UHGV virus genome: UHGV-0115279
Length of the DNA: 12,037 nucleotides
Strand: one strand, 5' to 3'
Source: a virus
Shown here: positions 2,121 through 12,037 of the stretch, piece after piece
How the letters are laid out: each line of letters starts with the position of its first letter
Position numbering within the stretch: the first letter of the stretch is position 1
The notes under the pieces: generated by a model
Databases searched by the model: none
Told to the model about the DNA's origin: nothing
What the model saw: the letters and a program-made list of their open reading frames with translations, nothing else
Position numbers and translations under genes: made by a program

Positions 2121-3710
2121 TTACTTAATAAGCAGCGGTACGCCCTGGATACGACGGGCTACGCCAGTCGGGCAGCAGGCCCAGACTACTTCCCATTTAT
2201 CGAATTCCGCCTGCGTAACTTTCAGCACATACGGTTCTGTACCGTCAGCATCAGGATCACGAGGAGCCACCAGAGCGCCGGAGGCGACAAAGCGATCCAA
2301 AAGTTTGGTCATCCCTTTAGTCAGGCCAGACTCAGTAATGCCGTCCGGGTTATGCTTCATCTGTCGGGCTAACTGGACAAAGAAACGGCTGATTGCGTTC
2401 ATCAGGGATGGGACGTGCTGGAAATGCAGATAGTTGTCCTGCGTGCAGCAAGTTAAAGCATCATCGATGATCATCTGGCCCGAAGTACCTACAGATACTT
2501 TATTGAGTCGGCCCTTGACCATAGCTTCTTCGTCCGGGGTGTCTTCAGGATACAGCGGCTGAAGTGATGCACGAGCAATGACGGCACGTTCTTCACCAGC
2601 CGGTGAGTAATGCCAACCGCCGACATCGGAGTTTTTCTTGACGCCACGAGCTATCGCCGCATACGCCGCGCCAGACAGACCGAAGATCACGCGGGATTGG
2701 GTCCATTTGTCTTTGCAGGAGAACGGGAAATGATAGACAGCACAGCTTACATAATCGGTACCAAGTAAACCGGTATCTTCAACAGCAGAGATCGCTTCCG
2801 TGTACGTCAATGTCGGTTTGACATCAAAGAAGCCATCAATCAGGCGATCAGAACAGATATTACCTAACGCAGTGATCGCCGCATTGTCATAGCAACCCAG
2901 GCCGAGAACAGCGGTGTACATGTACGGCGCATTGTTCAGCACTTTCACCGCACGCAGGTAAGCAGCAGTGGAAATGTTCGACTGATCGCCGTTGGTACCG
3001 CCAGTGAACGCCAGCGATTTTTTATTTGTTACTTTCGCCGTCGAAATCAGCTCTTCATTAACAACCGCGCGCAGATATTTAGAACGGGCTTCCAGAGCCG
3101 TAGGCAGATAACACAAGCGGCCCATGTCATCTTTCGCTTCTTCCGCCAAAGACACAGTGTGTGTCTCCAGGGTCGTTACCACACCGAGCGAAGTCGTCTG
3201 GGTCAGTTTTAAGAGGAAGCGTTCATTACCCGCGCTGTCCGCTGTTGCCGTTTCGATGGTTAACTCACGGGTAGGAGAAATACACGGATCACCATCATCA
3301 ACGTAGATAGCAAAGGCTTCGCCGCTATCAAGTTCAATTTCAGAACCGTATGGCAACGCACTGTAAGCCGGTTCGCCTGATTCATCGAACATAATAATCG
3401 GGAACTTCGCATCATCCGGAACAGCACGGACAACATAACCAGACGTTTGCTGAATAGCTTCGTACACATGGCGAATTGGTTCGAACTGTGAGCCGGAGGA
3501 CGGCTTCAGCGGTTCGCCGAGAACATCTTCGTAATTGGACTCAGTAACCGCAAGAACAGTAAACGGCTTGCCACGCGCAAATACGCCAATACCAGCCCAC
3601 AAGCTGCTATTTAATACAACACCGGTAGATAACGTCGCATCGGCATTGATCGGGCTAACAGCGACACCGGATGCATTACCTAATGACTGTTGAATTGAAT
3701 ATTGAGACAT
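2121..3710 (-). CDS. putative contractile tail sheath protein
   Basis: 529-aa ORF (~58 kDa) with ATG at 3710..3708 and an AGGGAAA SD. It lies immediately downstream of the major head gene, matching the P1 late operon order (head gene 23, sheath gene 22) as I recall it. Assignment is by size and synteny, not a verified motif. Confidence 0.55.
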   Translation of the reverse strand: MSQYSIQQSLGNASGVAVSPINADATLSTGVVLNSSLWAGIGVFARGKPFTVLAVTESNYEDVLGEPLKPSSGSQFEPIRHVYEAIQQTSGYVVRAVPDDAKFPIIMFDESGEPAYSALPYGSEIELDSGEAFAIYVDDGDPCISPTRELTIETATADSAGNERFLLKLTQTTSLGVVTTLETHTVSLAEEAKDDMGRLCYLPTALEARSKYLRAVVNEELISTAKVTNKKSLAFTGGTNGDQSNISTAAYLRAVKVLNNAPYMYTAVLGLGCYDNAAITALGNICSDRLIDGFFDVKPTLTYTEAISAVEDTGLLGTDYVSCAVYHFPFSCKDKWTQSRVIFGLSGAAYAAIARGVKKNSDVGGWHYSPAGEERAVIARASLQPLYPEDTPDEEAMVKGRLNKVSVGTSGQMIIDDALTCCTQDNYLHFQHVPSLMNAISRFFVQLARQMKHNPDGITESGLTKGMTKLLDRFVASGALVAPRDPDADGTEPYVLKVTQAEFDKWEVVWACCPTGVARRIQGVPLLIK

Positions 3711-3769: not shown

Positions 3770-4951
3770 TTACTCAGAGTCACCGGCATCAATCGTGTCG
3801 CCGCTTATAAAGTTAAGCCCGCCTTTTTTGGCCATTGTCAGCGTTACACGAGTGAAGTAATCAGCGCCGTTGCGTGGGTGCATATCGTTGATAGCCGAAC
3901 CCCACAGCGTGGTACGGTTGACCAGCGCCGGAGTGGTCGGATGCTGGAACGGGATGGCCGGGACAGCATCACCAGTCACGAAGCCTGCTTTACCCGGATT
4001 TTCATCACGGACGTAGCACAGCACATCCATCGAGCTGAACTGAATGTTCTCTGTCGTTAAGTTCTTACAAATACCAGCAGGTACTTCGTACACTTTCACG
4101 TTACCGAACAGGGTACCGATGTAGTGAACATACGGAGTCTGGATATAGTCTTCGGCTGACTGGAAGAAATCCTTCGGCAACTGTTTGAAGAAAGATGCTG
4201 CATCAGCACCAGCAAACATCCCCATCGCACCAGAAGATTTAACGCGCTCAATAATGTCGCGATATACAGTCTGGAATTTGCCACGAATGATGGTTGCCCA
4301 TACATCAAAGGACTGGTTAACCGGCAGAGCGATGTCAAAGGTGTCGGTCGCAAGAGTACGCCAGATCATGATGCGAAGACGCAGCATATCCTGTTCATGA
4401 GACAGGTATTCCTTCAGGGTGCGGAACTGTAGGGAACCCAGGTCCAGACCAAATTCACGCTGTGCTTCATACGCCGCCTGTACCGTGTGCTCAGCCGCGA
4501 TAACGAACTGACTTGGGAACAGGGTGTATTTCTTCATTTCGTGGTTGATCAGCGGGATCAGCTCAGGAGCGGCTTCAATATTGATTTCCGTCTCAATTGC
4601 GATCTCAGTGCCTTTATCCGGCGCTTTGGAGAACGACAGGGCAATCTGACCAATGTTGTAGTTCAGAGAGCAGGTAACAGTGATTTGCTCACCAGCAGCA
4701 TTAGTAAACGAGTGAAGTAGGCTGCCGGAACCGTTATCAACAACAGACTTAATACGGTTAACGTAGATGTTAGTGCGACCTTTTCGGATTGGTACATTCT
4801 GGCCTTCGAAGTCTTCCATCTTGAAGGTTGCGGTTTTGCTGGTGCCATCGGAGCTTGCCAGCAGCATAAGAACCAAAAGATGAACCTGCCACGTTAAAGA
4901 CTTCATAGATGTCGGACTGGTCACGCGTAACCGGAATGAAGGTACACGCAT
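3770..4951 (-). CDS. major head (capsid) protein, C-terminal ~365 codons; the upstream part appears to continue in another frame
   Basis: 393-aa ORF with no convincing RBS at its annotated ATG (4951) and a non-protein-like N-terminal ~30 aa, while the sequence from ..SSDGTSKTATFKMEDFEGQ onward looks like genuine protein. It overlaps the 4770..5432 ORF by 182 nt in a different frame. Confidence 0.6.
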   Translation of the reverse strand: MRVPSFRLRVTSPTSMKSLTWQVHLLVLMLLASSDGTSKTATFKMEDFEGQNVPIRKGRTNIYVNRIKSVVDNGSGSLLHSFTNAAGEQITVTCSLNYNIGQIALSFSKAPDKGTEIAIETEINIEAAPELIPLINHEMKKYTLFPSQFVIAAEHTVQAAYEAQREFGLDLGSLQFRTLKEYLSHEQDMLRLRIMIWRTLATDTFDIALPVNQSFDVWATIIRGKFQTVYRDIIERVKSSGAMGMFAGADAASFFKQLPKDFFQSAEDYIQTPYVHYIGTLFGNVKVYEVPAGICKNLTTENIQFSSMDVLCYVRDENPGKAGFVTGDAVPAIPFQHPTTPALVNRTTLWGSAINDMHPRNGADYFTRVTLTMAKKGGLNFISGDTIDAGDSE

Positions 4952-5432
4952 CAGCGGTAGCTGCCCCCAACTGAACAGGCAGGATCATCGCGAGGAATAA
5001 AGGCAGACGCATAACACCGTCAGAAACGCTCATCATCTCTGCTGCGACGGATTCCAGCATCGCTTTATTAGTGGCATCCATGCTATTGCGGGTGGACTCA
5101 ATCAGGCAGTTTTCCAGCGTCTGGTGGCAGGAGGCCAGAATTTCCGGACGCGGCATAGATTTATGTGCTGCGGCGTAGTCAGCCAGTGCACTTGCCCACG
5201 CTGTAGCGATTTGAGCGGTGGCATTATCAGAGATACCCGCAAAAACCGGGTCTTTACGTGCAGCTTCAAGGATAGATGCGGCACGCGCGGCATCATCTTT
5301 AATGAATTGGTTATCAGTACCGAACTGCGCAGTGCTTGCCCAGCCAAGCACAGCTTTAGAGCGTTTTGCGATATCTGCAATACGATTCTGGTATTCGCGT
5401 AAGTTACTCAATTTACTCTTCCTTAAACACAA
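4770..5432 (-). CDS. major head (capsid) protein, N-terminal portion (Ala-rich helical delta/scaffold-like domain), frame-shifted relative to 3770..4951
   Basis: The 220-aa ORF in the track begins at a TTG. The likely true start is the in-frame TTG at 5411..5409, preceded by AAGGAAG with 6-nt spacing. The N-terminal part is Ala-rich and protein-like; the last ~28 aa (KLRWHQQNRNLQDGRLRRPECTNPKRSH) look like out-of-frame read-through. Confidence 0.55.
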   Translation of the reverse strand: MCLRKSKLSNLREYQNRIADIAKRSKAVLGWASTAQFGTDNQFIKDDAARAASILEAARKDPVFAGISDNATAQIATAWASALADYAAAHKSMPRPEILASCHQTLENCLIESTRNSMDATNKAMLESVAAEMMSVSDGVMRLPLFLAMILPVQLGAATADACTFIPVTRDQSDIYEVFNVAGSSFGSYAAGKLRWHQQNRNLQDGRLRRPECTNPKRSH

Positions 5433-5454
5433 GGCACTTGTGTGAATCCCTTTT

Positions 5455-5495
5455 CGGAAGAGATTTTATTGAAAGTCACTTGTTGACTTTCTCGT
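5455..5495 (-). promoter_or_regulatory. putative phage late promoter for the head-sheath operon (palindromic activator site plus -10)
   Basis: A 21-bp palindrome with 8-bp arms, GAAAGTCA-ACAAG-TGACTTTC (5471..5491), is followed 2 nt downstream on the minus strand by TAAAAT (5468..5463). This puts the palindrome centre near -25, with no -35 hexamer, about 45 nt upstream of the head gene start. The architecture matches what I recall of P1 late promoters (Lpa-dependent). Confidence 0.4.
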
Positions 5496-5636: not shown

Positions 5637-6638
5637 TTAAGGCTTCGGCTTTTTATCGAGGCTCTTTCTAAGGATATGCCCAATCATCCTGTCGAGTTCT
5701 TCCTGTAGCTCTTTTGAAAGTCGATTAAACTCATAAGAAAATGCACGGCCTTTCACGCGCTTCCTTGCAAAGCGATCCTTGTCCTCAAATTTCCATAATT
5801 CAGTAACTACGGACTTATCTTTAGAACCTTTATCCGTGAGTAGTGAGGCTTCCTTTGTTATCAAGCGCAGGATTTTATTTTTAACTTCATCTTCGGCCAT
5901 TTCTTCAATGGATAAGATGTCGTTTATTTCCGGGGATATGTTTTGAATAAGCTGATCAAACTCTAAATTCTTGTTCCCCATTTCGTCGCCAACAGCACAA
6001 AGCGTTTTGTAGTCCGAAAAGGTTAATTCCGACTGCACAGGGAAAAGGGCGACTAATTCTTCCGGAGCACTCGCTGCCTGGAGAGCACGCGTGACCTTCG
6101 CCTGAGACAGCCCTTCTTTGGCTGCAATATCCTTCTGACTCATCCCATCATTTTTCATTCGCATCAAACGCAGACCTATTTCTCGAATGCTGTGCTGCAA
6201 TGCTGTCTGAACGTCTTTCGCTAAATTTTGCGCTTCCTGAACGCTGATCTCCTGGTCCGTGACTAAAACCCGCAACCCTACGTTCTCTAAGATGGCAGAA
6301 GCTCGACGCCGGGAACCATCCAAAATTTCAATTTTCCCTGTAGCCCGTCTAACACCTATTGCAGGGTAAAATTGCTGATGCTTAATAGTGCTTCGGATAC
6401 TTTTTAATGATTTTGGCGTAAGAGATGTCTGGTCACGCCCGTTGTTATGCTGATCAACAAAGGTATCGCTTTCTACCTGGTTCGGAGGTATTACCTCTTC
6501 AATAAATGTGGCCTGGCGACCAGTTGATAACTTGAATACCTGCTCGACTCGATCGCCAGAGGCTGAAGAACTATCAAATCCGCTTAATATTGAAGGATTA
6601 AGGGTTCGCCCAATTGTTGGTCTGTTTTTCTTTGACAT
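5637..6638 (-). CDS. parB: ParB partition protein (centromere-binding, P1 type)
   Basis: 333-aa ORF with ATG at 6638..6636 and a GAGGAG SD that overlaps the parA stop codon. N-terminus MSKKNRPTIGRTLNPSILSGFD.. and the arginine patch ..ILDGSRRRASAIL.. are typical of ParB, and it sits between parA and parS. Length and sequence match P1 ParB as far as I can recall. Confidence 0.9.
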   Translation of the reverse strand: MSKKNRPTIGRTLNPSILSGFDSSSASGDRVEQVFKLSTGRQATFIEEVIPPNQVESDTFVDQHNNGRDQTSLTPKSLKSIRSTIKHQQFYPAIGVRRATGKIEILDGSRRRASAILENVGLRVLVTDQEISVQEAQNLAKDVQTALQHSIREIGLRLMRMKNDGMSQKDIAAKEGLSQAKVTRALQAASAPEELVALFPVQSELTFSDYKTLCAVGDEMGNKNLEFDQLIQNISPEINDILSIEEMAEDEVKNKILRLITKEASLLTDKGSKDKSVVTELWKFEDKDRFARKRVKGRAFSYEFNRLSKELQEELDRMIGHILRKSLDKKPKP

Positions 6639-6654
6639 GGGGGTTTCTTACTCC

Positions 6655-7851
6655 TCAGTTAGATCTGATAAATTCAATACGGTCAAAAACTGCTTTAGCA
6701 AAATCTTCCGCAGCAATTCGCGCGTTCTTCAATGCATCAGCACTACCAACATACGTTGCCGGGTTAGCTGAAATAACAGTGTCAAAAGACTCGCCGCAGC
6801 GTTCAAAACCGTCAAGGCGAGGGAGGACAACATCAAGCATATCCCCACCGAACACTTCTTTAGCCAGGCTATGGCAATACTTATGGTCTGCCTTGTTACT
6901 CAACTTGGACATAAAACCAATGTTAGTTGCAAGCTGACACTCGCAGCCTTCATCCGAAATGAGTTTCACCAACTCAGGAAGGCGGGCAACGTATTTAAGC
7001 GATGAGTGGAAATCAACCGTTGCAGGCGGCAGAGGTGTAAACAGTATATTGGCCGAGGCCAAAGCATTTTTCAGGAAGGCGTCAAGGTGAGGACCACTAT
7101 CAACGAGGATAAAGTCATAATCGCTCTTCAGCTTATCAATCACATTTTCTTTCAGGACTGCATGGATGTTCTGACCCGGTAGATGCTCATTGCACAGCTC
7201 TCTCCAATCGGATGCAATAAAGGCATCGTCAATCGACGCAGGCATAACGTCAACCCCAGGTACAACAGAAGGAACAATAAACTCCTCTAACAGCTCTTCA
7301 CGGCTTACATTCTGCAACATAGCCTGTGCAGATGTTGCGTTTACGATACCAATAGAGTGTTTATGGCTTAAAAACATCGTTGCTGAAGATTGCGGATCAA
7401 GGTCAATAACCAGAATCCTTAAATCTTCCATCAGAAGATGAGGATGAGCACGCATTGCATGCGCCAGAGAAACCGTCGATACAGTTTTTGACACACCGCC
7501 TTTAAGATTGGAGATGAAAATCACATACGCTTCGCTGTAGCGATCCCGGTATTTTGGCACTCCGCGATGTTCATATATGTCAATGATGTTCTGAATTGAC
7601 ATCGCATATTTCATTGAAGAGCCAGCAGGGCGTTTATCGAAAACATAACCCTTTTCTTCCATTTCACTTACGGCATAGTCAACGTTCGCACGAGTCAGTA
7701 GAGGCAATTTTGCCAGTGCCGCTTTCGCATAGACCTGGTAAAACTCGTTCGCGTGTAGCTCATCCTTTTGCAACTGTACTTGTTCAGTCAGAACATTGAG
7801 CATTCTATTTGCTCTTTGAGCAACCTTGTGAAGCTGGCTGGAATCACTCAT
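6655..7851 (-). CDS. parA: ParA partition ATPase (type Ia, with N-terminal autoregulatory DNA-binding extension)
   Basis: 398-aa ORF with ATG at 7851..7849 and an AAGGA SD. It has the deviant Walker A motif NLKGGVSKTVSTV and a ~100-aa N-terminal extension, and lies immediately upstream of parB. Length and sequence match P1 ParA as I recall it. Confidence 0.9.
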   Translation of the reverse strand: MSDSSQLHKVAQRANRMLNVLTEQVQLQKDELHANEFYQVYAKAALAKLPLLTRANVDYAVSEMEEKGYVFDKRPAGSSMKYAMSIQNIIDIYEHRGVPKYRDRYSEAYVIFISNLKGGVSKTVSTVSLAHAMRAHPHLLMEDLRILVIDLDPQSSATMFLSHKHSIGIVNATSAQAMLQNVSREELLEEFIVPSVVPGVDVMPASIDDAFIASDWRELCNEHLPGQNIHAVLKENVIDKLKSDYDFILVDSGPHLDAFLKNALASANILFTPLPPATVDFHSSLKYVARLPELVKLISDEGCECQLATNIGFMSKLSNKADHKYCHSLAKEVFGGDMLDVVLPRLDGFERCGESFDTVISANPATYVGSADALKNARIAAEDFAKAVFDRIEFIRSN

Positions 7852-7990
7852 CGAAAGCCATCCTTTATGCTGTATTTTTGAATTTAATTAAAAATGCTGC
7901 ATAAAATAATAATGTATGCGTAGATGCTTGTACATAGCATTCTCTGCATGTTTGGTTCATTTTGCACGATTGAGAGTTACAAGGAGGGCA
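7852..7990 (-). promoter_or_regulatory. par operon promoter/operator region
   Basis: AT-rich 140-bp leader between the upstream terminator and the parA ATG, containing imperfect palindromes (e.g. ATGCTTGTACATAGCAT at 7924..7940; tgcata..tatgcg at 7879..7899). These are plausible sites for ParA autorepression; exact -35/-10 hexamers not assigned. Confidence 0.5.
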
Positions 7991-8014
7991 CAAAAAAGCC
8001 CCGTTCAGGGGCAT
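7991..8014 (-). terminator. rho-independent terminator of the 269-aa gene, insulating the par promoter
   Basis: Minus-strand RNA has GCCCC-UGAAC-GGGGC followed by UUUUUUGUG, beginning 6 nt after the TAA stop of the 8020..8829 CDS. Confidence 0.7.
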
Positions 8015-8019
8015 CAGTG

Positions 8020-8829
8020 TTATTTGCTAAGAGCAGCGAATAATCGTTCGAAATCGATAGTATCTATAGCACGCGTAAGCGCCGGAAGTTCAGCCTCAAA
8101 GTACCCGTGTCGATCGTAAAAGAAGGGACCGAAGAGCGAGGCATGTTGGATTCTACTTCGCCCCAGCCCGGACACACAGTTAAGCCCATTACCGGCTAAA
8201 AGGCTAAAAAACTTCTCTGGATTATCGTGGTAAAGCTGGGAATCAATGGTGGCGGTTAACTCTTCCATAGGGAAGCACACCCGCCCTGTATCCCAGGGAT
8301 ATTTAGTCCGAAGCATAAACATTGCTTTCAGCAATTCACATTGAGCGCGGATCGCGTCCGGTTCATAGCCAGATATGGAGACATAAGCCACGTCCCTCAT
8401 TCCTGCGTCATCTTTGAAAGTCACGATAGAAGTAACATCCAGCTCTTTTTCGAAAGAGCAAGCAGCATCTACTGGACGCTGAAGTAAATCATTCGACTTA
8501 ATGCGCTCGAGAATCCCTCCCCACATATCATTTAGATATTCGATATGAGCCAAAACCTTATCAAGACACTCTCGTGTAAACCATTCAGTATGCCCGCCAC
8601 CGACGCTTTTCTCCCACGGCGCATTCCAGGGGAAAAAGGTTGCGTGTAAAGCCCGCTCAAGATTAACCATTGCCAAACGCGTACCACGATAGACCCGTGA
8701 AAGCGCAAAATCGGGACTCACTTGTAGCCCTTTAAACCGTGCCAATGGACCACATGAAATGCCGATTTTAAAAGTATCTCCGTTCTCTGGCACCAGAACG
8801 TAGAGGTAGTGTTGTTTCTCTTCTTGCAT
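8020..8829 (-). CDS. GIY-YIG / T5orf172-like domain protein with uncharacterised C-terminal domain (candidate accessory, defence or anti-defence gene)
   Basis: 269-aa ORF with ATG at 8829..8827, weak SD, TAA stop and its own intrinsic terminator. The N-terminal ~90 aa (HYLYVLVPENGDTFKIGIS...R...LERALHATFF...GGGHTEWF) follows the Y-x-Y-[VI]-L ... KIG-x-[ST] ... R ... E..LH ... TEWF pattern of the GIY-YIG-related T5orf172 (MUG113-like) family. Residues ~100-269 have no motif I recognise. Confidence 0.75.
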   Translation of the reverse strand: MQEEKQHYLYVLVPENGDTFKIGISCGPLARFKGLQVSPDFALSRVYRGTRLAMVNLERALHATFFPWNAPWEKSVGGGHTEWFTRECLDKVLAHIEYLNDMWGGILERIKSNDLLQRPVDAACSFEKELDVTSIVTFKDDAGMRDVAYVSISGYEPDAIRAQCELLKAMFMLRTKYPWDTGRVCFPMEELTATIDSQLYHDNPEKFFSLLAGNGLNCVSGLGRSRIQHASLFGPFFYDRHGYFEAELPALTRAIDTIDFERLFAALSK

Positions 8830-8863
8830 ATCAATACCACTGCTTGATGAGAACCGCGCAAAT

Positions 8864-9120
8864 GTTGACTATGCGCGAAGGTTAATGTGAATAGTTGACT
8901 ATGCGCGATGTGACTACAGTCAAAAGTTGACTGTAGTCGATTTAACTCCACCAAAGATCGACTATGTAAGATATTGTCGGGAGAAACGTTGACTATACGC
9001 GATGAAATGCCCCTAAAAGCCATCTCAATAGCGACTTGCAGAATATTGACGCCAGCAAAAATCCACCAGCGTCAACGAATGTCGCCTATAGTCAACTTCT
9101 CGCTATCGCATATAGTCAAT
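8864..9120. repeat. incA: incA-like iteron array downstream of repA (copy-number control locus)
   Basis: Multiple copies of a ~14-bp core GTTGACTATGCGCG: direct at 8864..8877, 8894..8907 and 8988..9001; inverted at 9083..9096 and 9107..9120; degenerate copies at 8958..8966 and about 9046..9076. A head-to-head pair forms a perfect 12-bp inverted repeat (8912..8923 / 8927..8938). The last copy abuts the repA stop codon. Confidence 0.8.
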
Positions 9121-9121
9121 A

Positions 9122-10006
9122 TTATGGATTGCGCTTATGGATCTGGAAGCCGATTTTCCTGCCGTTTTTTATCTCTGAAAATTTAAGATATTCAATAGCT
9201 TCCAAATCTTTCATGGCTTTTCTGATAACGCTATTTTGCACGCTAACGGATGATTTGAGATTAAGCCTCGCTCTAAGGCGCTCAATGCTGACAGGTGCCG
9301 GGTTGGCGGGTAGAGCCTCAAAGAATGTATACAGTACCTTGGCCGTCTCTTTGCGCCCTAGTTTATCCAGCATCTTCAGCTTCAGGATTCGCTTATAGTC
9401 AACATAGTAAAGTTCAGATAGCTGTTTCTGCGGCTGGATCTCGATAACATCAAGCTCGGTATTCAGGCTGCTATATGCCAACAAGTTGACGTTAATGTTA
9501 TTGAGATGACCTTTTGCCGCCGGGAAGCGGAATTTGACAACTGTCTGCTGAATGCGTGTCAGAGAGTCATCAATACTTTTACGGAACGCCTTTGAAAGGC
9601 GCTTACGTGGATAGCCGCATCGATCGGCAAACTCGGAGAATGGCAGGGTGATTATGCCGTCATCATCAGGTGCGTAGTCAAACAACGCGGAGGTTATGCC
9701 CACCCACACCTTAAAATCAGTATCCATATCCAGGCGTGGACCATGAATTTCAATTCCCTCATAGCCTTCCTGCTCAACAATTTTGAGGCTTGATAGTTCT
9801 TCAGTTGCGTTCGTTGTGTTTGTTGTAACTGACGATCCGCGACGTAGCGCCACATTGGTAGATTTTAAGGTTGGCACAAACACACCTAAGCGCAACAAAG
9901 CGATGGGTTGTATAGTGCTGTTGTTATTGGGCTTCAGGCTGTGGATTTCTCCTGTATTTCCTGCAACTTCTTCAACGCTAAGGAAGCCTTTACTTTCTTC
10001 CGGCAT
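9122..10006 (-). CDS. repA: RepA iteron-binding replication initiator (RepA/RepE family)
   Basis: ORF 9122..10042 in the track starts at a TTG; the most plausible start is the ATG at 10006..10004 (MPEESKGF..), with GGAG 8-12 nt upstream, giving 295 aa. Blocks IQPIALLRLGVFVP, IHGPRLDMDTDFKVWVGI, FSEFADRCGYPRKRL and LYTFFEALPANPAPVSIERLRARL resemble the P1 RepA / F RepE initiator family, and the gene is flanked by iteron arrays on both sides. Confidence 0.85.
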   Translation of the reverse strand: MPEESKGFLSVEEVAGNTGEIHSLKPNNNSTIQPIALLRLGVFVPTLKSTNVALRRGSSVTTNTTNATEELSSLKIVEQEGYEGIEIHGPRLDMDTDFKVWVGITSALFDYAPDDDGIITLPFSEFADRCGYPRKRLSKAFRKSIDDSLTRIQQTVVKFRFPAAKGHLNNINVNLLAYSSLNTELDVIEIQPQKQLSELYYVDYKRILKLKMLDKLGRKETAKVLYTFFEALPANPAPVSIERLRARLNLKSSVSVQNSVIRKAMKDLEAIEYLKFSEIKNGRKIGFQIHKRNP

Positions 10007-10050
10007 CACGGTTTCTCCATGTGTGGCGCGGCCTGACGTCAATTTGGATG

Positions 10051-10300
10051 GCTGTTATCAACAGCTGTGAATATTCAGACTCTAAAATCGCTTACAGTCA
10101 ATGTTTCTGTCGCGTATAGTCAACAATAAATCGCGTGCAGTCAACAATAAATCGTGCACAGTCAACATAAAATCGCGTATAGTCAATGTTGATCCCATTT
10201 CAGGCCAGTAATGACGCGGCTTACAGCGATCCGGGATCTTCTTTGGATCTTCCTAGGTTCTCTTTAGGATCTGTTTATTGGATCTATGCTGTGGATAAGT
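10051..10300. other. oriR: oriR-like plasmid origin: DnaA boxes, clustered GATC sites and five iterons
   Basis: Five iterons at 21-bp spacing (about 10089, 10111, 10132, 10153, 10174; unit CGCGTATAGTCAACA + AT-rich spacer). Six GATC sites within 95 bp (10191, 10228, 10235, 10246, 10268, 10281; four as GGATCT). A perfect DnaA box TGTGGATAA sits at 10290..10298 and an 8/9 DnaA box TTATCAACA at 10055..10063, inside the palindrome GCTGTT-ATC-AACAGC (10051..10065). Located directly upstream of repA. Confidence 0.8.
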
Positions 10301-10304
10301 TGAA

Positions 10305-10330
10305 TAAACCGGCCAACAAAGCCGGTTGGA
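10305..10330 (-). terminator. putative terminator between the small-gene block and oriR
   Basis: Minus-strand RNA has AACCGGC-UUUGUUG-GCCGGUU followed by UAUUCAACUU, 12 nt after the stop of the 10342..10734 CDS. The U-tract is only moderate. Confidence 0.4.
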
Positions 10331-10341
10331 AGGAAGTCATA

Positions 10342-10734
10342 TTATTCTACGCTTTCGATAAGAAGACCATGTTCATAACATTTAAGCTCATCGCCTTCGT
10401 ACAGGAATTGGTATCCAATACCACCATTTTCATGGACATTAGGGAATAACTCATAACTCACTGAAGAGCAAATCACACCAATGCAGCGATCAACGCCTTC
10501 TCGTTCTTCAGTGCTGAAAAAATCCTCTTCGGTAAGGACATGAGTACATTGCTCATCAGCATAGGTCGGAAATACATGCTCGATGCAATCCGGGTGTTTT
10601 AAACCAAGCTGATCGGCAAGCTCGAAAGCATGACGGTATTGTTCAGATCCTGGCTTGCCAACAGTGATGTGCTCAATTTTGTAGATTGAAGTTGCTTTGT
10701 TGATAGTTTGCTTTACTGTTACTTTATCAGACAT
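10342..10734 (-). CDS. hypothetical Cys/His-containing small protein
   Basis: 130-aa ORF with ATG at 10734..10732 and an AAGGGA SD. Contains spaced Cys/His residues (HPDC, EQCTH, CIGVIC, KCYEH) that could bind metal. Position corresponds to the first gene after oriR in the P1 map (upfA) as I recall it. Confidence 0.6.
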   Translation of the reverse strand: MSDKVTVKQTINKATSIYKIEHITVGKPGSEQYRHAFELADQLGLKHPDCIEHVFPTYADEQCTHVLTEEDFFSTEEREGVDRCIGVICSSVSYELFPNVHENGGIGYQFLYEGDELKCYEHGLLIESVE

Positions 10735-10745
10735 AAAAATCCCTT

Positions 10746-11078
10746 TTAGTTACCTCTGATAGCGCGGTTGTAATCATTAACGTTGCGATTCTTCCTGTTA
10801 ATCCCCATCAGCATCGTTTCTGTATCGAGGATATACGCTGGCAGATCATCAAAATATTCACTGCTAAACTCTGGCATCCTGCACATAAATGCACTTTTGG
10901 GGGCAGGGTGGTTAACCTTTGTCGGCGTCGGCGTTAAATTCGCTGATCGACTGCCGGAGCAACCGCTGAGTGTCAGCAGGAATGCGCTGGCGAACATTAC
11001 CCGCCGCAACCAGTTGTTTCTGAACTTCAGCTTTTCGTTCCATTTGCCTGTCAGCATATTTGGCTTGTTCTGATTCAT
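10746..11078 (-). CDS. lipoprotein precursor; o-spanin-like (or exclusion lipoprotein)
   Basis: 110-aa ORF with ATG at 11078..11076 and an AGGAAG SD 8 nt upstream. It has a lipobox L-S-G-C preceded by the hydrophobic stretch VMFASAFLLT and K/R residues, and a Pro/Thr-rich mature region (TPTPTKVNHPAPK) with one Cys. Its start lies inside the 3' part of the upstream membrane-protein gene in another frame (167-nt overlap). The signal peptide is unusually long from this ATG, so the true start may be an internal Met. Confidence 0.6.
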   Translation of the reverse strand: MNQNKPNMLTGKWNEKLKFRNNWLRRVMFASAFLLTLSGCSGSRSANLTPTPTKVNHPAPKSAFMCRMPEFSSEYFDDLPAYILDTETMLMGINRKNRNVNDYNRAIRGN

Positions 11079-11334
11079 TTTTCACTTCCTGGCTGTGAAA
11101 ATGTTGCTCTGCTTTGTTCATCGTCTCAATGGTCTGGTTAAGATCCATTATTGACTTATCACGTTCCTTAACAGCCTGATCAAGACTGCCAATTTTCTCC
11201 ATGGCTTGCTTTAGCTGATGACGTTCCCATGCAAACCCAGCACCAACAAGTGCGCAAATCAGAACAAGAACACCAGTAGCAGCAAGTTTCTCCTTCAAAG
11301 ACAAAGCTGTTTTTAACGTAGAAAAGAATGACAT
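10912..11334 (-). CDS. membrane-anchored coiled-coil protein; i-spanin-like
   Basis: ORF 10912..11361 in the track starts at a TTG; the likely start is the ATG at 11334..11332, preceded by AGGAGG at 6-nt spacing, giving 140 aa. It has one N-terminal transmembrane segment (AATGVLVLICALVGAGFAW) followed by a charged, helical, coiled-coil-like region rich in Q/E/K/R. Confidence 0.6.
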   Translation of the reverse strand: MSFFSTLKTALSLKEKLAATGVLVLICALVGAGFAWERHQLKQAMEKIGSLDQAVKERDKSIMDLNQTIETMNKAEQHFHSQEVKNESEQAKYADRQMERKAEVQKQLVAAGNVRQRIPADTQRLLRQSISEFNADADKG

Positions 11335-11373
11335 GTCTTCCTCCTGAAGAAAAATTATCAATGAAGTCCTTTG

Positions 11374-11910
11374 TTACTGTGCCGCTTTGTTTAATTCATC
11401 AAGAACAGAATCAGGAACCAAAGCGGCAACTGCGCTGGCTGTGCTGACCTTATTTGCTGATGCTTCCGCAAGCGCGGTACCGATAGCATGGTTATAAGCA
11501 GTTATGGCTACGTTGGCGCTTTCATTCGCTCGTTCATACTGCTGTTGTAACGCAGTTGTGGGCGTTGTTGTCTGGTTGAAAACAACCCCAAACTGTTCAG
11601 TTGCTACTTTCAGAGATTCAATTTGCTCTTCTGTTAGTGCTGGTGGGGGAGTGGCAGTGCCGCCGCCTGAACCAGAGCCTGACGAGCTTCCTGAGCCAGT
11701 GTTAAGGGTCTGGTTAATCTCCCCCATAGCAGCGACTAAACTTGATGTATTAAGCGCGTTAACAGCGTCCTCAAGCGATTTAGTAATATTCACATCACCA
11801 ATGGCAATAGAGATCGGCAGTTCTGAAACTTCTCGCTCATTAGCACGGCAGTAAACATCCCAACCAATATCGAGTTGAAGCAGCATTGACAGATCTGCAT
11901 AACCAGCCAA
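11374..11910 (-). CDS. hypothetical two-domain protein with Gly/Ser-rich linker
   Basis: 178-aa ORF in the track starts at a TTG (11910); the first in-frame ATG is at 11886..11884 and neither has a strong SD, so the start is uncertain. It has a central flexible linker (TGSGSSSGSGSGGGTATPPP) between an N-terminal and an Ala-rich C-terminal region. Confidence 0.5.
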   Translation of the reverse strand: MAGYADLSMLLQLDIGWDVYCRANEREVSELPISIAIGDVNITKSLEDAVNALNTSSLVAAMGEINQTLNTGSGSSSGSGSGGGTATPPPALTEEQIESLKVATEQFGVVFNQTTTPTTALQQQYERANESANVAITAYNHAIGTALAEASANKVSTASAVAALVPDSVLDELNKAAQ

Positions 11911-12037
11911 CAGGTCCGCGTGCTTAGTTGCCAGTTCTCCAATGTTCGTTAAGTCGGTTGTGGTTGTTCTTATCGTTGAAACGGTGATGCTGCCAACTTA
12001 CTGATTTAGTGTATGATGGTGTTTTTGAGGTTCTCCA

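Follow-up and report, generated by a model that had tools for sequence, protein, structure and literature searches.

The two-component spanins closest to the locus studied here are the Rz/Rz1 pair of phage lambda, the LysB/LysC pair of phage P2, described by Kongari et al. (2018) as the overlapped spanin tested by experiment, and the predicted spanin of phage P1. For the last of these, SpaninDB (Kongari 2018, PMC6139136, supplement) lists gp064/gp063 as an overlapped ('ovl') OIS/OOS i-spanin/o-spanin pair forming the family 'P1'. The P1 spanin genes have been reported to sit in an operon unlinked to the remaining lysis genes, the spreading of lysis genes over several operons being a known peculiarity of this phage (Bednarek 2022, PMC9025707). 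As a side remark, the i- and o-spanin labels of the P1 pair are interchanged in two recent papers. The spanin criteria applied below are those of Summer 2007 and Kongari 2018; a position beside a holin-endolysin cassette and late expression are usual, and not obligatory, for spanins.

The window, that is the whole stretch of 12,037 nucleotides analysed here (UHGV virus genome UHGV-0115279), comes from a P1-like phage-plasmid. Its positions 10300-11982 are 95-99% identical at the nucleotide level to P1, P7, SJ46, RCS47 and other punaviruses. All coordinates given below refer to the window, and ppfA, mlp, their neighbours upfA and upfB and the sites within or between these genes lie on its minus strand. 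The two overlapped genes that a first-pass annotation of this DNA had read as an i-spanin/o-spanin (Rz/Rz1-like) pair encode proteins sharing 98.6% amino acid identity with P1 PpfA (gp064) and 97% with P1 Mlp (gp063), and the gene order upfB-ppfA-mlp-upfA of P1 is kept. In punaviruses, the counterparts of both genes are annotated ppfA/mlp, 'Rz/Rz1' or 'Rz-like spanin', the latter being the RefSeq name for P1 mlp. We identify the two genes as the ppfA and mlp of a P1-like phage-plasmid (Punavirus); very probably, their products form the two-component spanin predicted for P1. SpaninDB, RefSeq, PHROG and Bednarek 2022 all agree with the spanin reading, and the comparison with a curated spanin database that had been advised led directly to P1 gp064/gp063, already entered there as an overlapped pair. 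The literature and the curated database already document the overlapped architecture, the spanin assignment and the separation from the remaining lysis genes of P1. The finding is thus genuine but ordinary, being a rediscovery of P1 ppfA/mlp, since the first-pass annotation had not identified the DNA as that of phage P1. Its discovery value is small, while a correct call is useful for annotation: hundreds of P1-like plasmids carry a standard annotation in which ppfA is still 'hypothetical' and mlp is shortened or missing.

The first gene of the pair, ppfA (10912..11334), is preceded by a Shine-Dalgarno sequence AGGAGG (11339..11344, 5' of the ATG), which is also the one given in SpaninDB. It encodes the orthologue of P1 gp064, a 140-aa predicted i-spanin of type II inner-membrane topology, as judged from the ORF, sequence identity, the match to phrog_89, the SpaninDB label 'OIS' and an AlphaFold2 model. 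The hydrophobicity profile (Kyte-Doolittle, 19-mer) peaks at residues 17-35 (LAATGVLVLICALVGAGFA; codons at 11230..11286) with a mean of 2.35 and displays no second hydrophobic segment, in agreement with the single N-terminal transmembrane helix first proposed for this 140-aa protein. AlphaFold2 places this segment in a helix, and SpaninDB has the periplasmic domain begin at residue 37 (Kongari 2018, PMC6139136). The rest of the protein (104-106 residues) is devoid of periplasmic cysteines, rich in Q/A/E/K and 34% charged. In the model (pLDDT 69.5), a long helix (residues 13-110) is followed by an interruption (111-119) and a further helix (120-137). Within residues 37-75, hydrophobic side chains occupy 9 of the 11 a/d heptad positions versus 4 of the 28 others, a score matched by about 1 in 1,000 shuffles (2,000 shuffles performed); for the distal helix (76-110) the heptad pattern was not significant in this crude shuffle test. 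Altogether, the charge content, the modelled helices and the heptad pattern at 37-75 bear out the earlier description of a long charged, coiled-coil-like domain.

The second gene, mlp (10746..11078), lies in the +1 frame of ppfA. It encodes the orthologue of P1 gp063, a 110-aa lipoprotein precursor and predicted o-spanin, on the basis of the ORF, sequence identity, PHROG matches, similarity to LysC and the SpaninDB label 'OOS'. Its Shine-Dalgarno sequence, AGGAAG (11085..11090), is located inside ppfA and reads GGAGG in diverged relatives. We set the start of mlp at Met1 because this sequence and the ATG are conserved there in the relatives of about 60% identity (JK004, L007, L008 and L010). 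Starts at Met8 and Met28 were rejected: only Met1 has a good Shine-Dalgarno sequence, Met28 is replaced by Leu in relatives, and Met1 is also the choice made in SpaninDB.

The regular-expression search and the alignment locate a lipobox L-S-G-C at residues 37-40 (10959..10970), with Cys40 as the predicted lipidated N-terminus. In E. coli, an Asp at position +2 after the lipidated cysteine is the Lol-avoidance rule; the +2 residue of Mlp is a Ser. Mature Mlp would comprise 71 residues beginning with C-S-G, six of which are Pro, together with one further cysteine, Cys66 (codon at 10881..10883), so that the lipobox and the Pro- and Cys-containing mature part described at first are recovered. This mature part is mostly disordered and Pro-containing, and the AlphaFold2 model of Mlp (pLDDT 51.7) was too poor for fold searches. 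Alignments identify Cys66 as the sole periplasmic cysteine of the pair; it is invariant in all relatives and aligns with a cysteine of P2 LysC. SpaninDB likewise counts one periplasmic cysteine in the P1 o-spanin and none in the i-spanin (Kongari 2018, PMC6139136), and at least one, for covalent homodimers, is found in 507 of 528 spanin systems (Kongari 2018).

The Mlp signal peptide is atypical, with 39 residues and a long basic n-region, and is conserved in relatives. SpaninDB records a LipoP cleavage at 39, the comment 'Too long signal sequence' and no Prosite hit (PMC6139136). Among o-spanins, this conserved long basic n-region is a minor oddity. As for the size of the protein, the first-pass annotation had found it longer than typical o-spanins. 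This is correct with respect to lambda Rz1 (60-aa precursor), but Mlp (110 aa as precursor, 71 aa mature) is similar in length to P2 LysC (96 aa) and to other SpaninDB entries, with mature lengths of 64-89 aa.

The two genes have 167 nt in common and mlp runs 166 nt past the end of ppfA, exactly as had been noted for the lipoprotein gene in the other frame. The two-frame region (10912..11078), defined by these coordinates and by a reduced dS, encodes PpfA residues 86-140 and Mlp residues 1-56, i.e. the signal peptide, the lipobox and the start of the mature part. This layout is kept in JK004, L007, L008 and L010 (about 60% amino acid identity) as well as in the more distant L012 and L015, and the Shine-Dalgarno sequence and ATG of mlp are conserved in the first four. 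All relatives retain the lipobox (LSAC, LNGC, LNAC or LSSC in the diverged ones, with a mature start C-S in all), the second cysteine and the C-terminal motifs of Mlp. Nei-Gojobori estimates of dN/dS are 0.16-0.27 for the part coding for PpfA only and about 0.07, with a saturated dS, for the part coding for Mlp only. The dS of ppfA drops from 1.5-2.2 outside the overlap to 0.65-0.93 inside, as expected if the second frame is constrained. These values indicate that purifying selection acts on both frames, in relatives as distant as about 35-60% identity.

One could assume that only ppfA is a real gene and that the +1 ORF with its lipobox is a chance product of ppfA and of a non-coding spacer before upfA. 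Indeed, PGAP and metagenome gene calls give only a truncated ORF of 43-52 aa 3' of ppfA. However, overlapped o-spanin genes are systematically missed by gene callers (Kongari et al. 2018), and the full ORF is present in all relatives examined, down to PpfA profile matches with E-values of 1e-21 to 3e-8. The low dN/dS of the non-overlapped half and the significant similarity of Mlp to P2 LysC also speak against an accident. We thus rejected this explanation, which is extremely unlikely: conservation and dN/dS in relatives of 35-60% identity effectively refute it.

BLASTP aligns Mlp with P2 LysC with an E-value of 4e-8 (37% identity over 68 aa), the match spanning the signal peptide, the lipobox, a Pro/Thr stretch and a C-MP motif that contains the aligned periplasmic cysteine; hhalign gives a probability of 89.7% and an E-value of 1.9e-6. 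Mlp matches phrog_30284 (E 1.4e-76) and phrog_456 (E 4.2e-5), both 'Rz-like spanin', and LysC in turn matches phrog_456 and, weakly, phrog_30284. Mlp and the o-spanin LysC of P2 are remotely homologous at the level of sequence. Mlp and five orthologues gave no match to Pfam PF23793 (LysC) even at E <= 10, a model against which P2 LysC itself scores 64.9 bits. For PpfA, the 'Rz-like spanin' family phrog_89 is matched over the full length by both PpfA (E 1.1e-25) and P2 LysB (E 5.8e-61). The pairwise comparison of PpfA with LysB was not significant (BLASTP E 61; hhalign probability 1.2%). Against NCBIfam TIGR03495 (phage_LysB), PpfA obtained 19.5 bits (E 9e-4) and its distant relative P0102 21.3 bits, below the curated cut-off of 92.75 bits, whereas the LysB control reached 174.5 bits. 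Direct homology between PpfA and LysB was set aside, the link consisting of the shared PHROG and this sub-threshold match alone. Otherwise, searches of PpfA and Mlp against Pfam, NCBIfam, PDB sequences and PADLOC returned nothing above threshold.

Word-indexed searches and an exhaustive profile search indicate that the PpfA/Mlp family is narrow: about 20 representatives, many of them fragments, were found at E <= 1e-10 among 1.8 billion. Long unrelated coiled-coil proteins that appeared in the profile search were treated as noise. Every full-length relative with an examinable context resides on a P1-like replicon with the same synteny, so that guilt by association is of no help within the family. 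No holin or endolysin neighbour was found in P1 or in the relatives examined, nor is there one in the window, as the first-pass annotation had stated, and the P1-type pair lies outside the usual spanin position in or beside a holin-endolysin cassette. It is found instead close to the replicon, from which a single gene separates it, upfA (10342..10734; ORF matching phrog_1453, of unknown function). In P1, the string upfC-upfB-ppfA-mlp-upfA runs towards oriR. In this copy, the adjoining replicon is not the P1 IncY repA/incA but consists of a Rep3-family initiator and a T5orf172/GIY-YIG gene.

By comparison with P1, only the 3' two-thirds of the upstream gene upfB are present (11374..11982), the gene being cut by IS1 at about residue 80. 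A sequence identical to the predicted sigma-70 promoter 'P1ppfA' of the P1 GenBank annotation lies at 11376..11402, without any mismatch in the window; a consensus scan did not recover it. A generic sigma-70 promoter and terminator scan of 10200-12037 gave no excess over shuffles and nothing 5' of ppfA on the minus strand. The P1 record contains only predicted sigma-70 promoters in this region and no annotated Lpa-type late promoter. The late-promoter motif of LP23 (AAGTGACTT-N4-TANNNT, with up to 2 mismatches) was absent upstream of ppfA, upfB and upfC, in P1 and in the window, a weak negative since the motif is drawn from one example. The first gene of the P1 string, upfC, encodes a PAAR/T4 gp5.4-like protein, which would be part of the virion tail tip and therefore a late product. 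In P1vir RNA-seq data (preprint 10.64898/2025.12.28.696737, Table S1), the log2FC of ppfA, mlp and upfB is 0 at 10 min and 3.1, 1.5 and 4.0, respectively, at 20 min, with very low counts that are not significant. For comparison, lyz goes from 0 to 3.2 and lydA/lydD from 0 to 1.5 over the same interval, and early P1 genes have reached 5-7 by 10 min (10.64898/2025.12.28.696737). The timing of ppfA/mlp is thus late-like in a sparse data set, where its counts are very low and not significant.

These observations bear on the alternative that the pair would be an envelope module expressed in lysogeny from sigma-70 promoters by the replicon, and acting in superinfection exclusion, receptor masking or envelope modification. 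The promoters predicted 5' of the pair in the P1 record, all of the sigma-70 type with no recognisable late promoter among them, would fit such a role, and so would the constant location near the maintenance region, never beside a holin or endolysin gene in the relatives examined. CRISPRi knock-down of mlp gave EOP values of 0.24 and 0.19 and that of ppfA 1.3 and 1.2, both genes being scored non-essential, as was upfB. This dispensability for plaque formation is compatible with a lysogenic function, but spanins are dispensable under many laboratory conditions (Bednarek 2022, PMC9025707). One may add that the unusual long basic N-terminus of the Mlp signal is conserved and that the best-conserved part of Mlp is its C-terminal region (dN/dS ~0.07), which is absent from lambda Rz1. 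On the other hand, the RNA-seq data, sparse as they are, display a late-like rise without early expression. All functionally annotated profile matches are to spanin families, and Mlp is homologous to P2 LysC. An exclusion lipoprotein would moreover have no need for a co-translated type II coiled-coil partner in a +1 overlap of the P2 lysB/lysC type. The superinfection exclusion or envelope modification initially envisaged as a substitute for lysis received no positive support: no Pfam match reached the curated cut-off, and PADLOC gave no match for PpfA, Mlp, UpfA or UpfB, although the latter negative is weak because its models do not cover all superinfection-exclusion lipoproteins. We consider a lysogenic envelope module improbable. 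It is likewise quite improbable that PpfA and Mlp are not simply a lysis spanin but a complex that spans the envelope, derives from a spanin and has taken on another or a further task, an idea that could follow from the narrow family, the constant upf string by the maintenance region, the lack of a recognisable late promoter and the 39-residue basic signal. If it were true, the complex could act in the lysogen (exclusion or remodelling of the envelope), or the disruption of the outer membrane could be timed by an export step that is delayed and regulated.

Another matter is whether the predicted spanin serves in this particular element, which is apparently damaged. Its spanin genes might be intact yet functionally idle, carried by a decaying P1-like plasmid unable to finish a lytic cycle. 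Supporting this idea, capsid gene 23 bears, near window position 4862, a 65-nt frameshifting deletion that was not found among the best-matching records listed of 625 PLSDB matches, and IS1 truncates upfB 609 nt before its stop codon, separating ppfA/mlp from the upstream P1 DNA. The deletion could however have arisen as an artefact of sequencing or assembly, P1-like plasmids commonly carry IS insertions near upfB, a non-essential gene, and ppfA and mlp are themselves intact and 97-99% identical to those of functional P1. Idleness is a possibility that we hold to be rather doubtful, and it would say something about the condition of the host element and nothing about the nature of the pair.

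Returning to a spanin involved in lysis, a mechanism can be proposed, whose steps of membrane insertion and lipoprotein maturation are inferred from the sequence features described above. PpfA would be anchored in the inner membrane by its N-terminal helix, with its helical, partly coiled-coil domain reaching into the periplasm. After export, Mlp would receive its lipid at Cys40 and lose its signal peptide to signal peptidase II; it would then probably be sorted to the outer membrane because its +2 residue is Ser, and it would probably dimerize via Cys66. The following steps are proposed by analogy with lambda Rz/Rz1 and P2 LysB/LysC. The C-terminal parts of PpfA and Mlp could bind each other, yielding a complex that reaches across the periplasm by passing through the meshwork of the peptidoglycan. 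The LydA/LydD holins, whose genes lie in another part of the genome, would release the SAR-endolysin Lyz, and the complex would remain inactive until Lyz has destroyed the murein. The complexes could then draw the inner and outer membranes together and fuse them, so that the last barrier to phage release would be gone. The dispersal of P1 lysis functions would explain why ppfA and mlp lie apart from the remaining lysis genes.

A parallel can finally be drawn with each of the known systems. The two proteins are as long as P1 gp064 and gp063 (140 and 110 aa), and their genes have the same 167-nt +1 overlap, the same two Shine-Dalgarno sequences and the same flanking genes, upfB and upfA. The differences are limited to substitutions I45M and E127Q in PpfA and S7N, V32A and S108R in Mlp, to the interruption of upfB by IS1 and to the different adjoining replicon. 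P2 LysB and LysC are similar in size to PpfA and Mlp (141 and 96 aa), and their genes display the same +1 overlapped layout, with 146 nt shared and a lysC start at about 0.66 of lysB versus about 0.61 of ppfA for mlp. In contrast, the P2 pair ends a classical cassette, Y (holin)-K (endolysin)-lysA-lysB-lysC, whereas the P1-type pair is unlinked to lysis genes, and Mlp differs from LysC by its signal peptide, which has 39 residues and a long basic n-region. Like lambda Rz/Rz1, the P1-type pair would associate a type II helical inner-membrane protein with an outer-membrane lipoprotein encoded in its +1 frame, and in both pairs the o-spanin cysteine is about equally far from the lipidated one (C29 in lambda Rz1 (Kongari 2018), position 27 in mature Mlp). 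By analogy, the two pairs presumably act through the same mechanism. They differ in that the 60-aa Rz1 is fully embedded in Rz while mlp runs beyond ppfA, in their PHROGs (phrog_13 for Rz and phrog_3198 for Rz1), in the periplasmic cysteines of the inner-membrane partner (two in Rz, none in PpfA) and in the location of the lambda genes directly 3' of S and R.

Sequence comparison identifies the overlapped pair as P1 ppfA (gp064; 10912-11334, minus strand) and mlp (gp063; 10746-11078, minus strand), with amino-acid identities to the P1 proteins of 98.6% for PpfA and 97% for Mlp. The features that the first-pass annotation had described for them, a transmembrane, coiled-coil-like protein overlapped by a lipoprotein gene, were all recovered in place when the sequence was checked. 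Translation of ppfA starts at an ATG at 11334, seven bases after AGGAGG, and yields 140 residues. The only hydrophobic segment spans residues 17-35 (Kyte-Doolittle 2.35), and the rest of the protein is 34% charged and rich in Q, A, E and K. Using a 19-sequence alignment as input, AlphaFold2 predicted one long helix over residues 13-110 and a second over 120-137, separated by a break at 111-119 (AAGNVRQRIP), with a mean pLDDT of 69.5. Residues 37-75 display a strong a/d heptad pattern, matched by about 1 in 1,000 of 2,000 shuffles; this crude shuffle test detected no such pattern in the distal helix.

The mlp gene starts in the +1 frame relative to ppfA, with an ATG at 11078 preceded by AGGAAG. 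It shares 167 nt with ppfA and continues 166 nt past it, giving a product of 110 residues. The lipobox L-S-G-C places the cysteine predicted to be lipidated at position 40, followed by Ser at +2, and the mature protein of 71 residues begins with a Pro/Thr-rich stretch and contains a single additional cysteine, Cys66. Its AlphaFold2 model is poor and largely coil (pLDDT 51.7); poor, coil-like predictions are usual for o-spanins, and the model is otherwise uninformative. The signal peptide (10962-11078, residues 1-39) is 39 residues long, of which 27 form a K/R-rich n-region. Since the basic character of this region is kept in all relatives, despite a variable sequence, and the start codon and Shine-Dalgarno sequence are conserved at about 60% identity, the comparison suggests that so long an n-region is genuine and may have a function. 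Gene callers report for mlp just an ORF of 43-52 codons 3' of ppfA, both in the window and at the equivalent positions of compared loci (L002, L006-L011, L014). In MH422554 this truncated call is named 'Rz1' (46 aa) and forms a PHROG of its own (15803, 'lipoprotein'), and PGAP names both genes 'hypothetical protein'. The mis-annotation of mlp is systematic.

We compared the pair with a diverged set whose PpfA is about 60% identical to that of the window (Cronobacter phage JK004, a Salmonella plasmid contig, a Klebsiella-aerogenes-type contig and a metagenomic contig) and with two more distant relatives retrieved by an exhaustive profile search (PpfA profile E 1e-21 and 3e-8). All of them encode a TM/coiled-coil protein of 140-151 residues at the ppfA position and, in the +1 frame, a lipoprotein ORF of about 108-110 codons with a long basic n-region ahead of the signal-peptide core. 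Those with about 60% identity also conserve the GGAGG and ATG of mlp. In all relatives, a lipobox is present that reads LSAC, LNGC, LNAC or LSSC and has Ser as its next residue, the second cysteine lies within a (F/S)MC(R/T)(M/L)P motif and the C-terminal motif DL.(A/G)YI.D...L..(I/V)N.KN..VN.YN is conserved. Nei-Gojobori estimates, with the window copy as reference, gave dN/dS values of 0.16-0.27 for the ppfA-only part and of about 0.07, with saturated dS, for the mlp-only part. Within the overlap, dS of ppfA drops to 0.65-0.93, compared with 1.5-2.2 outside, as is characteristic of a sequence that is also constrained in a second frame. For the overlapping portion of mlp, dN/dS seemingly exceeds 1, an expected artefact, because mlp synonymous sites are first codon positions of ppfA. 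Altogether, these comparisons indicate that the second frame is real, and a chance ORF is excluded by its conservation in the diverged relatives. The downstream neighbourhood varies. In L008 and L009, two Klebsiella-aerogenes-type contigs, the 555 nt from ppfA to rep (6424-6977) contain no called gene, so that upfA seems to be missing there. On the downstream side of the pair, the most distant lineage (L012-L014) has additional genes (5608-7182 in L012) and no recognisable rep or par gene. The pair is therefore not invariably next to the replicon.

The window is part of a P1-like phage-plasmid (genus Punavirus) of an enterobacterium, and all its tabulated genes lie on the minus strand. Three genes upstream of gene 22 (158-2111), one called 'baseplate protein' in the annotation of a related plasmid, are followed by sheath gene 22 (2121-3710), capsid gene 23 (about 3770-5440), parB (5637-6638) and parA (6655-7851). 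A T5orf172/GIY-YIG-type ORF (8020-8829) separates parA from a Rep3-family initiator gene (9122-10042), which exceeds the Pfam cut-off for Rep3_C, falls just short of it for Rep3_N and is annotated as RepB/RepFIB in related plasmids. Beyond it lie upfA (10342-10734), the pair itself and the 3' part of upfB (11374-11982). Between 10300 and 11982 the sequence has 95-99% identity to P1, P7, SJ46, RCS47 and others, and over 500 PLSDB plasmids carry this stretch. The replicon (7951-10211) shows no similarity to P1 repA/incA; since the flanking par and upfA-side genes are P1-like, this looks like a replicon swap.

The element that carries this copy of the pair looks damaged. Compared with P1, the major capsid gene 23 lacks 65 nt (1255-1310 of the P1 locus plus a 9-nt microhomology; junction 4858-4866). 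The deletion is bounded by 9-nt microhomologies and shifts the frame, leaving two out-of-frame ORFs (3770-4951 and 4770-5432). Of 625 PLSDB plasmid records that matched, all the best ones listed retain these 65 nt, and the deletion means either that the prophage is defective or that the assembly is in error. In addition, an IS1 terminal inverted repeat (GGTGATGCTGCCAACTTACTGAT...) closes the window (11983-12037). The insertion truncates upfB at about residue 80, with loss of its first ~79 codons, and removes upfC together with the entire upstream control region that P1 has. LP23, the predicted P1 late promoter 5' of gene 23, is fully conserved (5463-5481, minus strand, AAGTGACTT-N4-TAAAAT), and the parS/ParB-box region, which the P1 annotation places next to LP23, falls in a stretch 99% identical to P1. 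The damage bears on whether ppfA and mlp serve here, not on what they are.

In the P1 record, the promoters predicted for the string containing ppfA and mlp are all of the sigma-70 type (P1ppfA and P2ppfA, within upfB); none is a late promoter dependent on Lpa. P1ppfA (11376-11402) is identical in the window and is the sole predicted promoter left upstream of ppfA after the IS1 insertion; P2ppfA has 6 mismatches. A scan with the LP23 motif recovered LP23 itself and nothing 5' of ppfA, upfB or upfC, and a generic promoter scan stayed at background level. Wild-type log2 fold changes from a P1vir RNA-seq preprint (10.64898/2025.12.28.696737, Table S1) were 0 at 10 min for ppfA, mlp, upfB, lyz, lydA and lydD. 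At 20 min they reached 3.1, 1.5, 4.0, 3.2, 1.5 and 1.5, respectively, all from very few reads and not significant; early genes (for example cre, ref and c8) stood at 5-7 at 10 min. The first gene of the P1 string, upfC, encodes a PAAR/T4 gp5.4-like protein, which we take to be a tail-tip component and therefore a late product. In genome-wide CRISPRi, both genes were non-essential for plaques (EOP 0.24 and 0.19 for mlp, 1.3 and 1.2 for ppfA). This is compatible with a spanin role because spanins are dispensable in shaken laboratory culture (Bednarek et al., PMC9025707).

The reading as an i-spanin/o-spanin pair, proposed in the first-pass annotation, is supported by a curated database, RefSeq and the literature, where it is already known, as well as by the PHROG matches and the Mlp-LysC similarity given below. 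In SpaninDB (supplementary tables of Kongari et al. 2018, PMC6139136), P1 gp064/gp063 appear as an i-spanin/o-spanin pair of the overlapped class ('ovl') that makes up a family of its own, 'P1'. The Shine-Dalgarno sequences and start codons given there are those seen here; LipoP places the cleavage at residue 39, the count of periplasmic cysteines is one and Mlp carries the remark 'Too long signal sequence'. In the GenBank entry for P1, the mlp product is a membrane lipoprotein precursor 'possibly involved in regulation of lysis (by homology)'; its current RefSeq name is 'Rz-like spanin', and in several further records the two genes go by the names Rz and Rz1. According to Bednarek et al. 2022 (PMC9025707), the overlapping spanin genes lie in an operon apart from lyz-lydD-lydE, lydA-lydB and lydC, and it was Summer et al. 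2007 who recognised the pair from its predicted features. Both Bednarek et al. and a 2025 preprint label PpfA as o-spanin and Mlp as i-spanin; the labels are reversed, the sequences identifying PpfA as the inner-membrane and Mlp as the outer-membrane subunit. What interest remains lies in the predicted function of the pair, its promoter and the conserved over-long Mlp signal peptide.

Against PHROG, PpfA matched phrog_89 (1.1e-25, full length), phrog_739 and phrog_214, and Mlp matched phrog_30284 (its own family) and phrog_456 (4.2e-5), all 'Rz-like spanin'. The pair had also been considered as an exclusion or envelope module expressed in lysogeny. This is improbable: PADLOC gave no match, Pfam none above curated cut-off, and spanin families account for every functionally annotated match.

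As a spanin, by analogy with lambda and P2, PpfA would sit in the inner membrane and the lipoprotein Mlp in the outer one, anchored in its inner leaflet, their C-terminal periplasmic parts binding each other and Mlp dimerising via Cys66. The complex would pass through the murein, which would keep it inactive until, upon triggering by the LydA/LydD holins, the SAR-endolysin Lyz degrades the murein and the complexes fuse both membranes. What the analysis itself provides is sequence features, conservation and remote homology. The cysteine distribution and the proposed Cys66 dimer fit a common spanin pattern, with a cysteine in the o-spanin and none in the i-spanin (Kongari et al., PMC6139136).

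P2 lysB/lysC and lambda Rz/Rz1 served as comparison genes. PpfA showed no detectable similarity to LysB, either pairwise or by hhalign against the single LysB sequence, and scored 19.5 bits against TIGR03495 (phage_LysB), under the cut-off of 92.75; Mlp and its orthologues did not match Pfam PF23793 (LysC) at all. By sequence, the pair thus falls outside the curated LysB and LysC families, in a separate narrow family restricted to P1-like elements. P2 LysB is a strong member of phrog_89 (5.8e-61), and LysC is a strong member of phrog_456 (1.7e-31) that also touches phrog_30284. BLASTP aligned Mlp with LysC (E 4e-8, 37% identity over 68 residues) from the h-region through the lipobox and the Pro/Thr stretch, with one cysteine in register, and hhalign with the Mlp profile gave a probability of 89.7% (E 1.9e-6). 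The geometry is also nearly the same: lysB and lysC encode 141 and 96 residues and share 146 nt, lysC beginning in the +1 frame two-thirds into lysB, at the end of the classical lysis cassette Y-K-lysA-lysB-lysC. The ppfA/mlp pair thus probably acts like, and is probably a distant relative of, the P2 spanin, which Kongari et al. (PMC6139136) identify as the overlapped spanin that has been tested by experiment.
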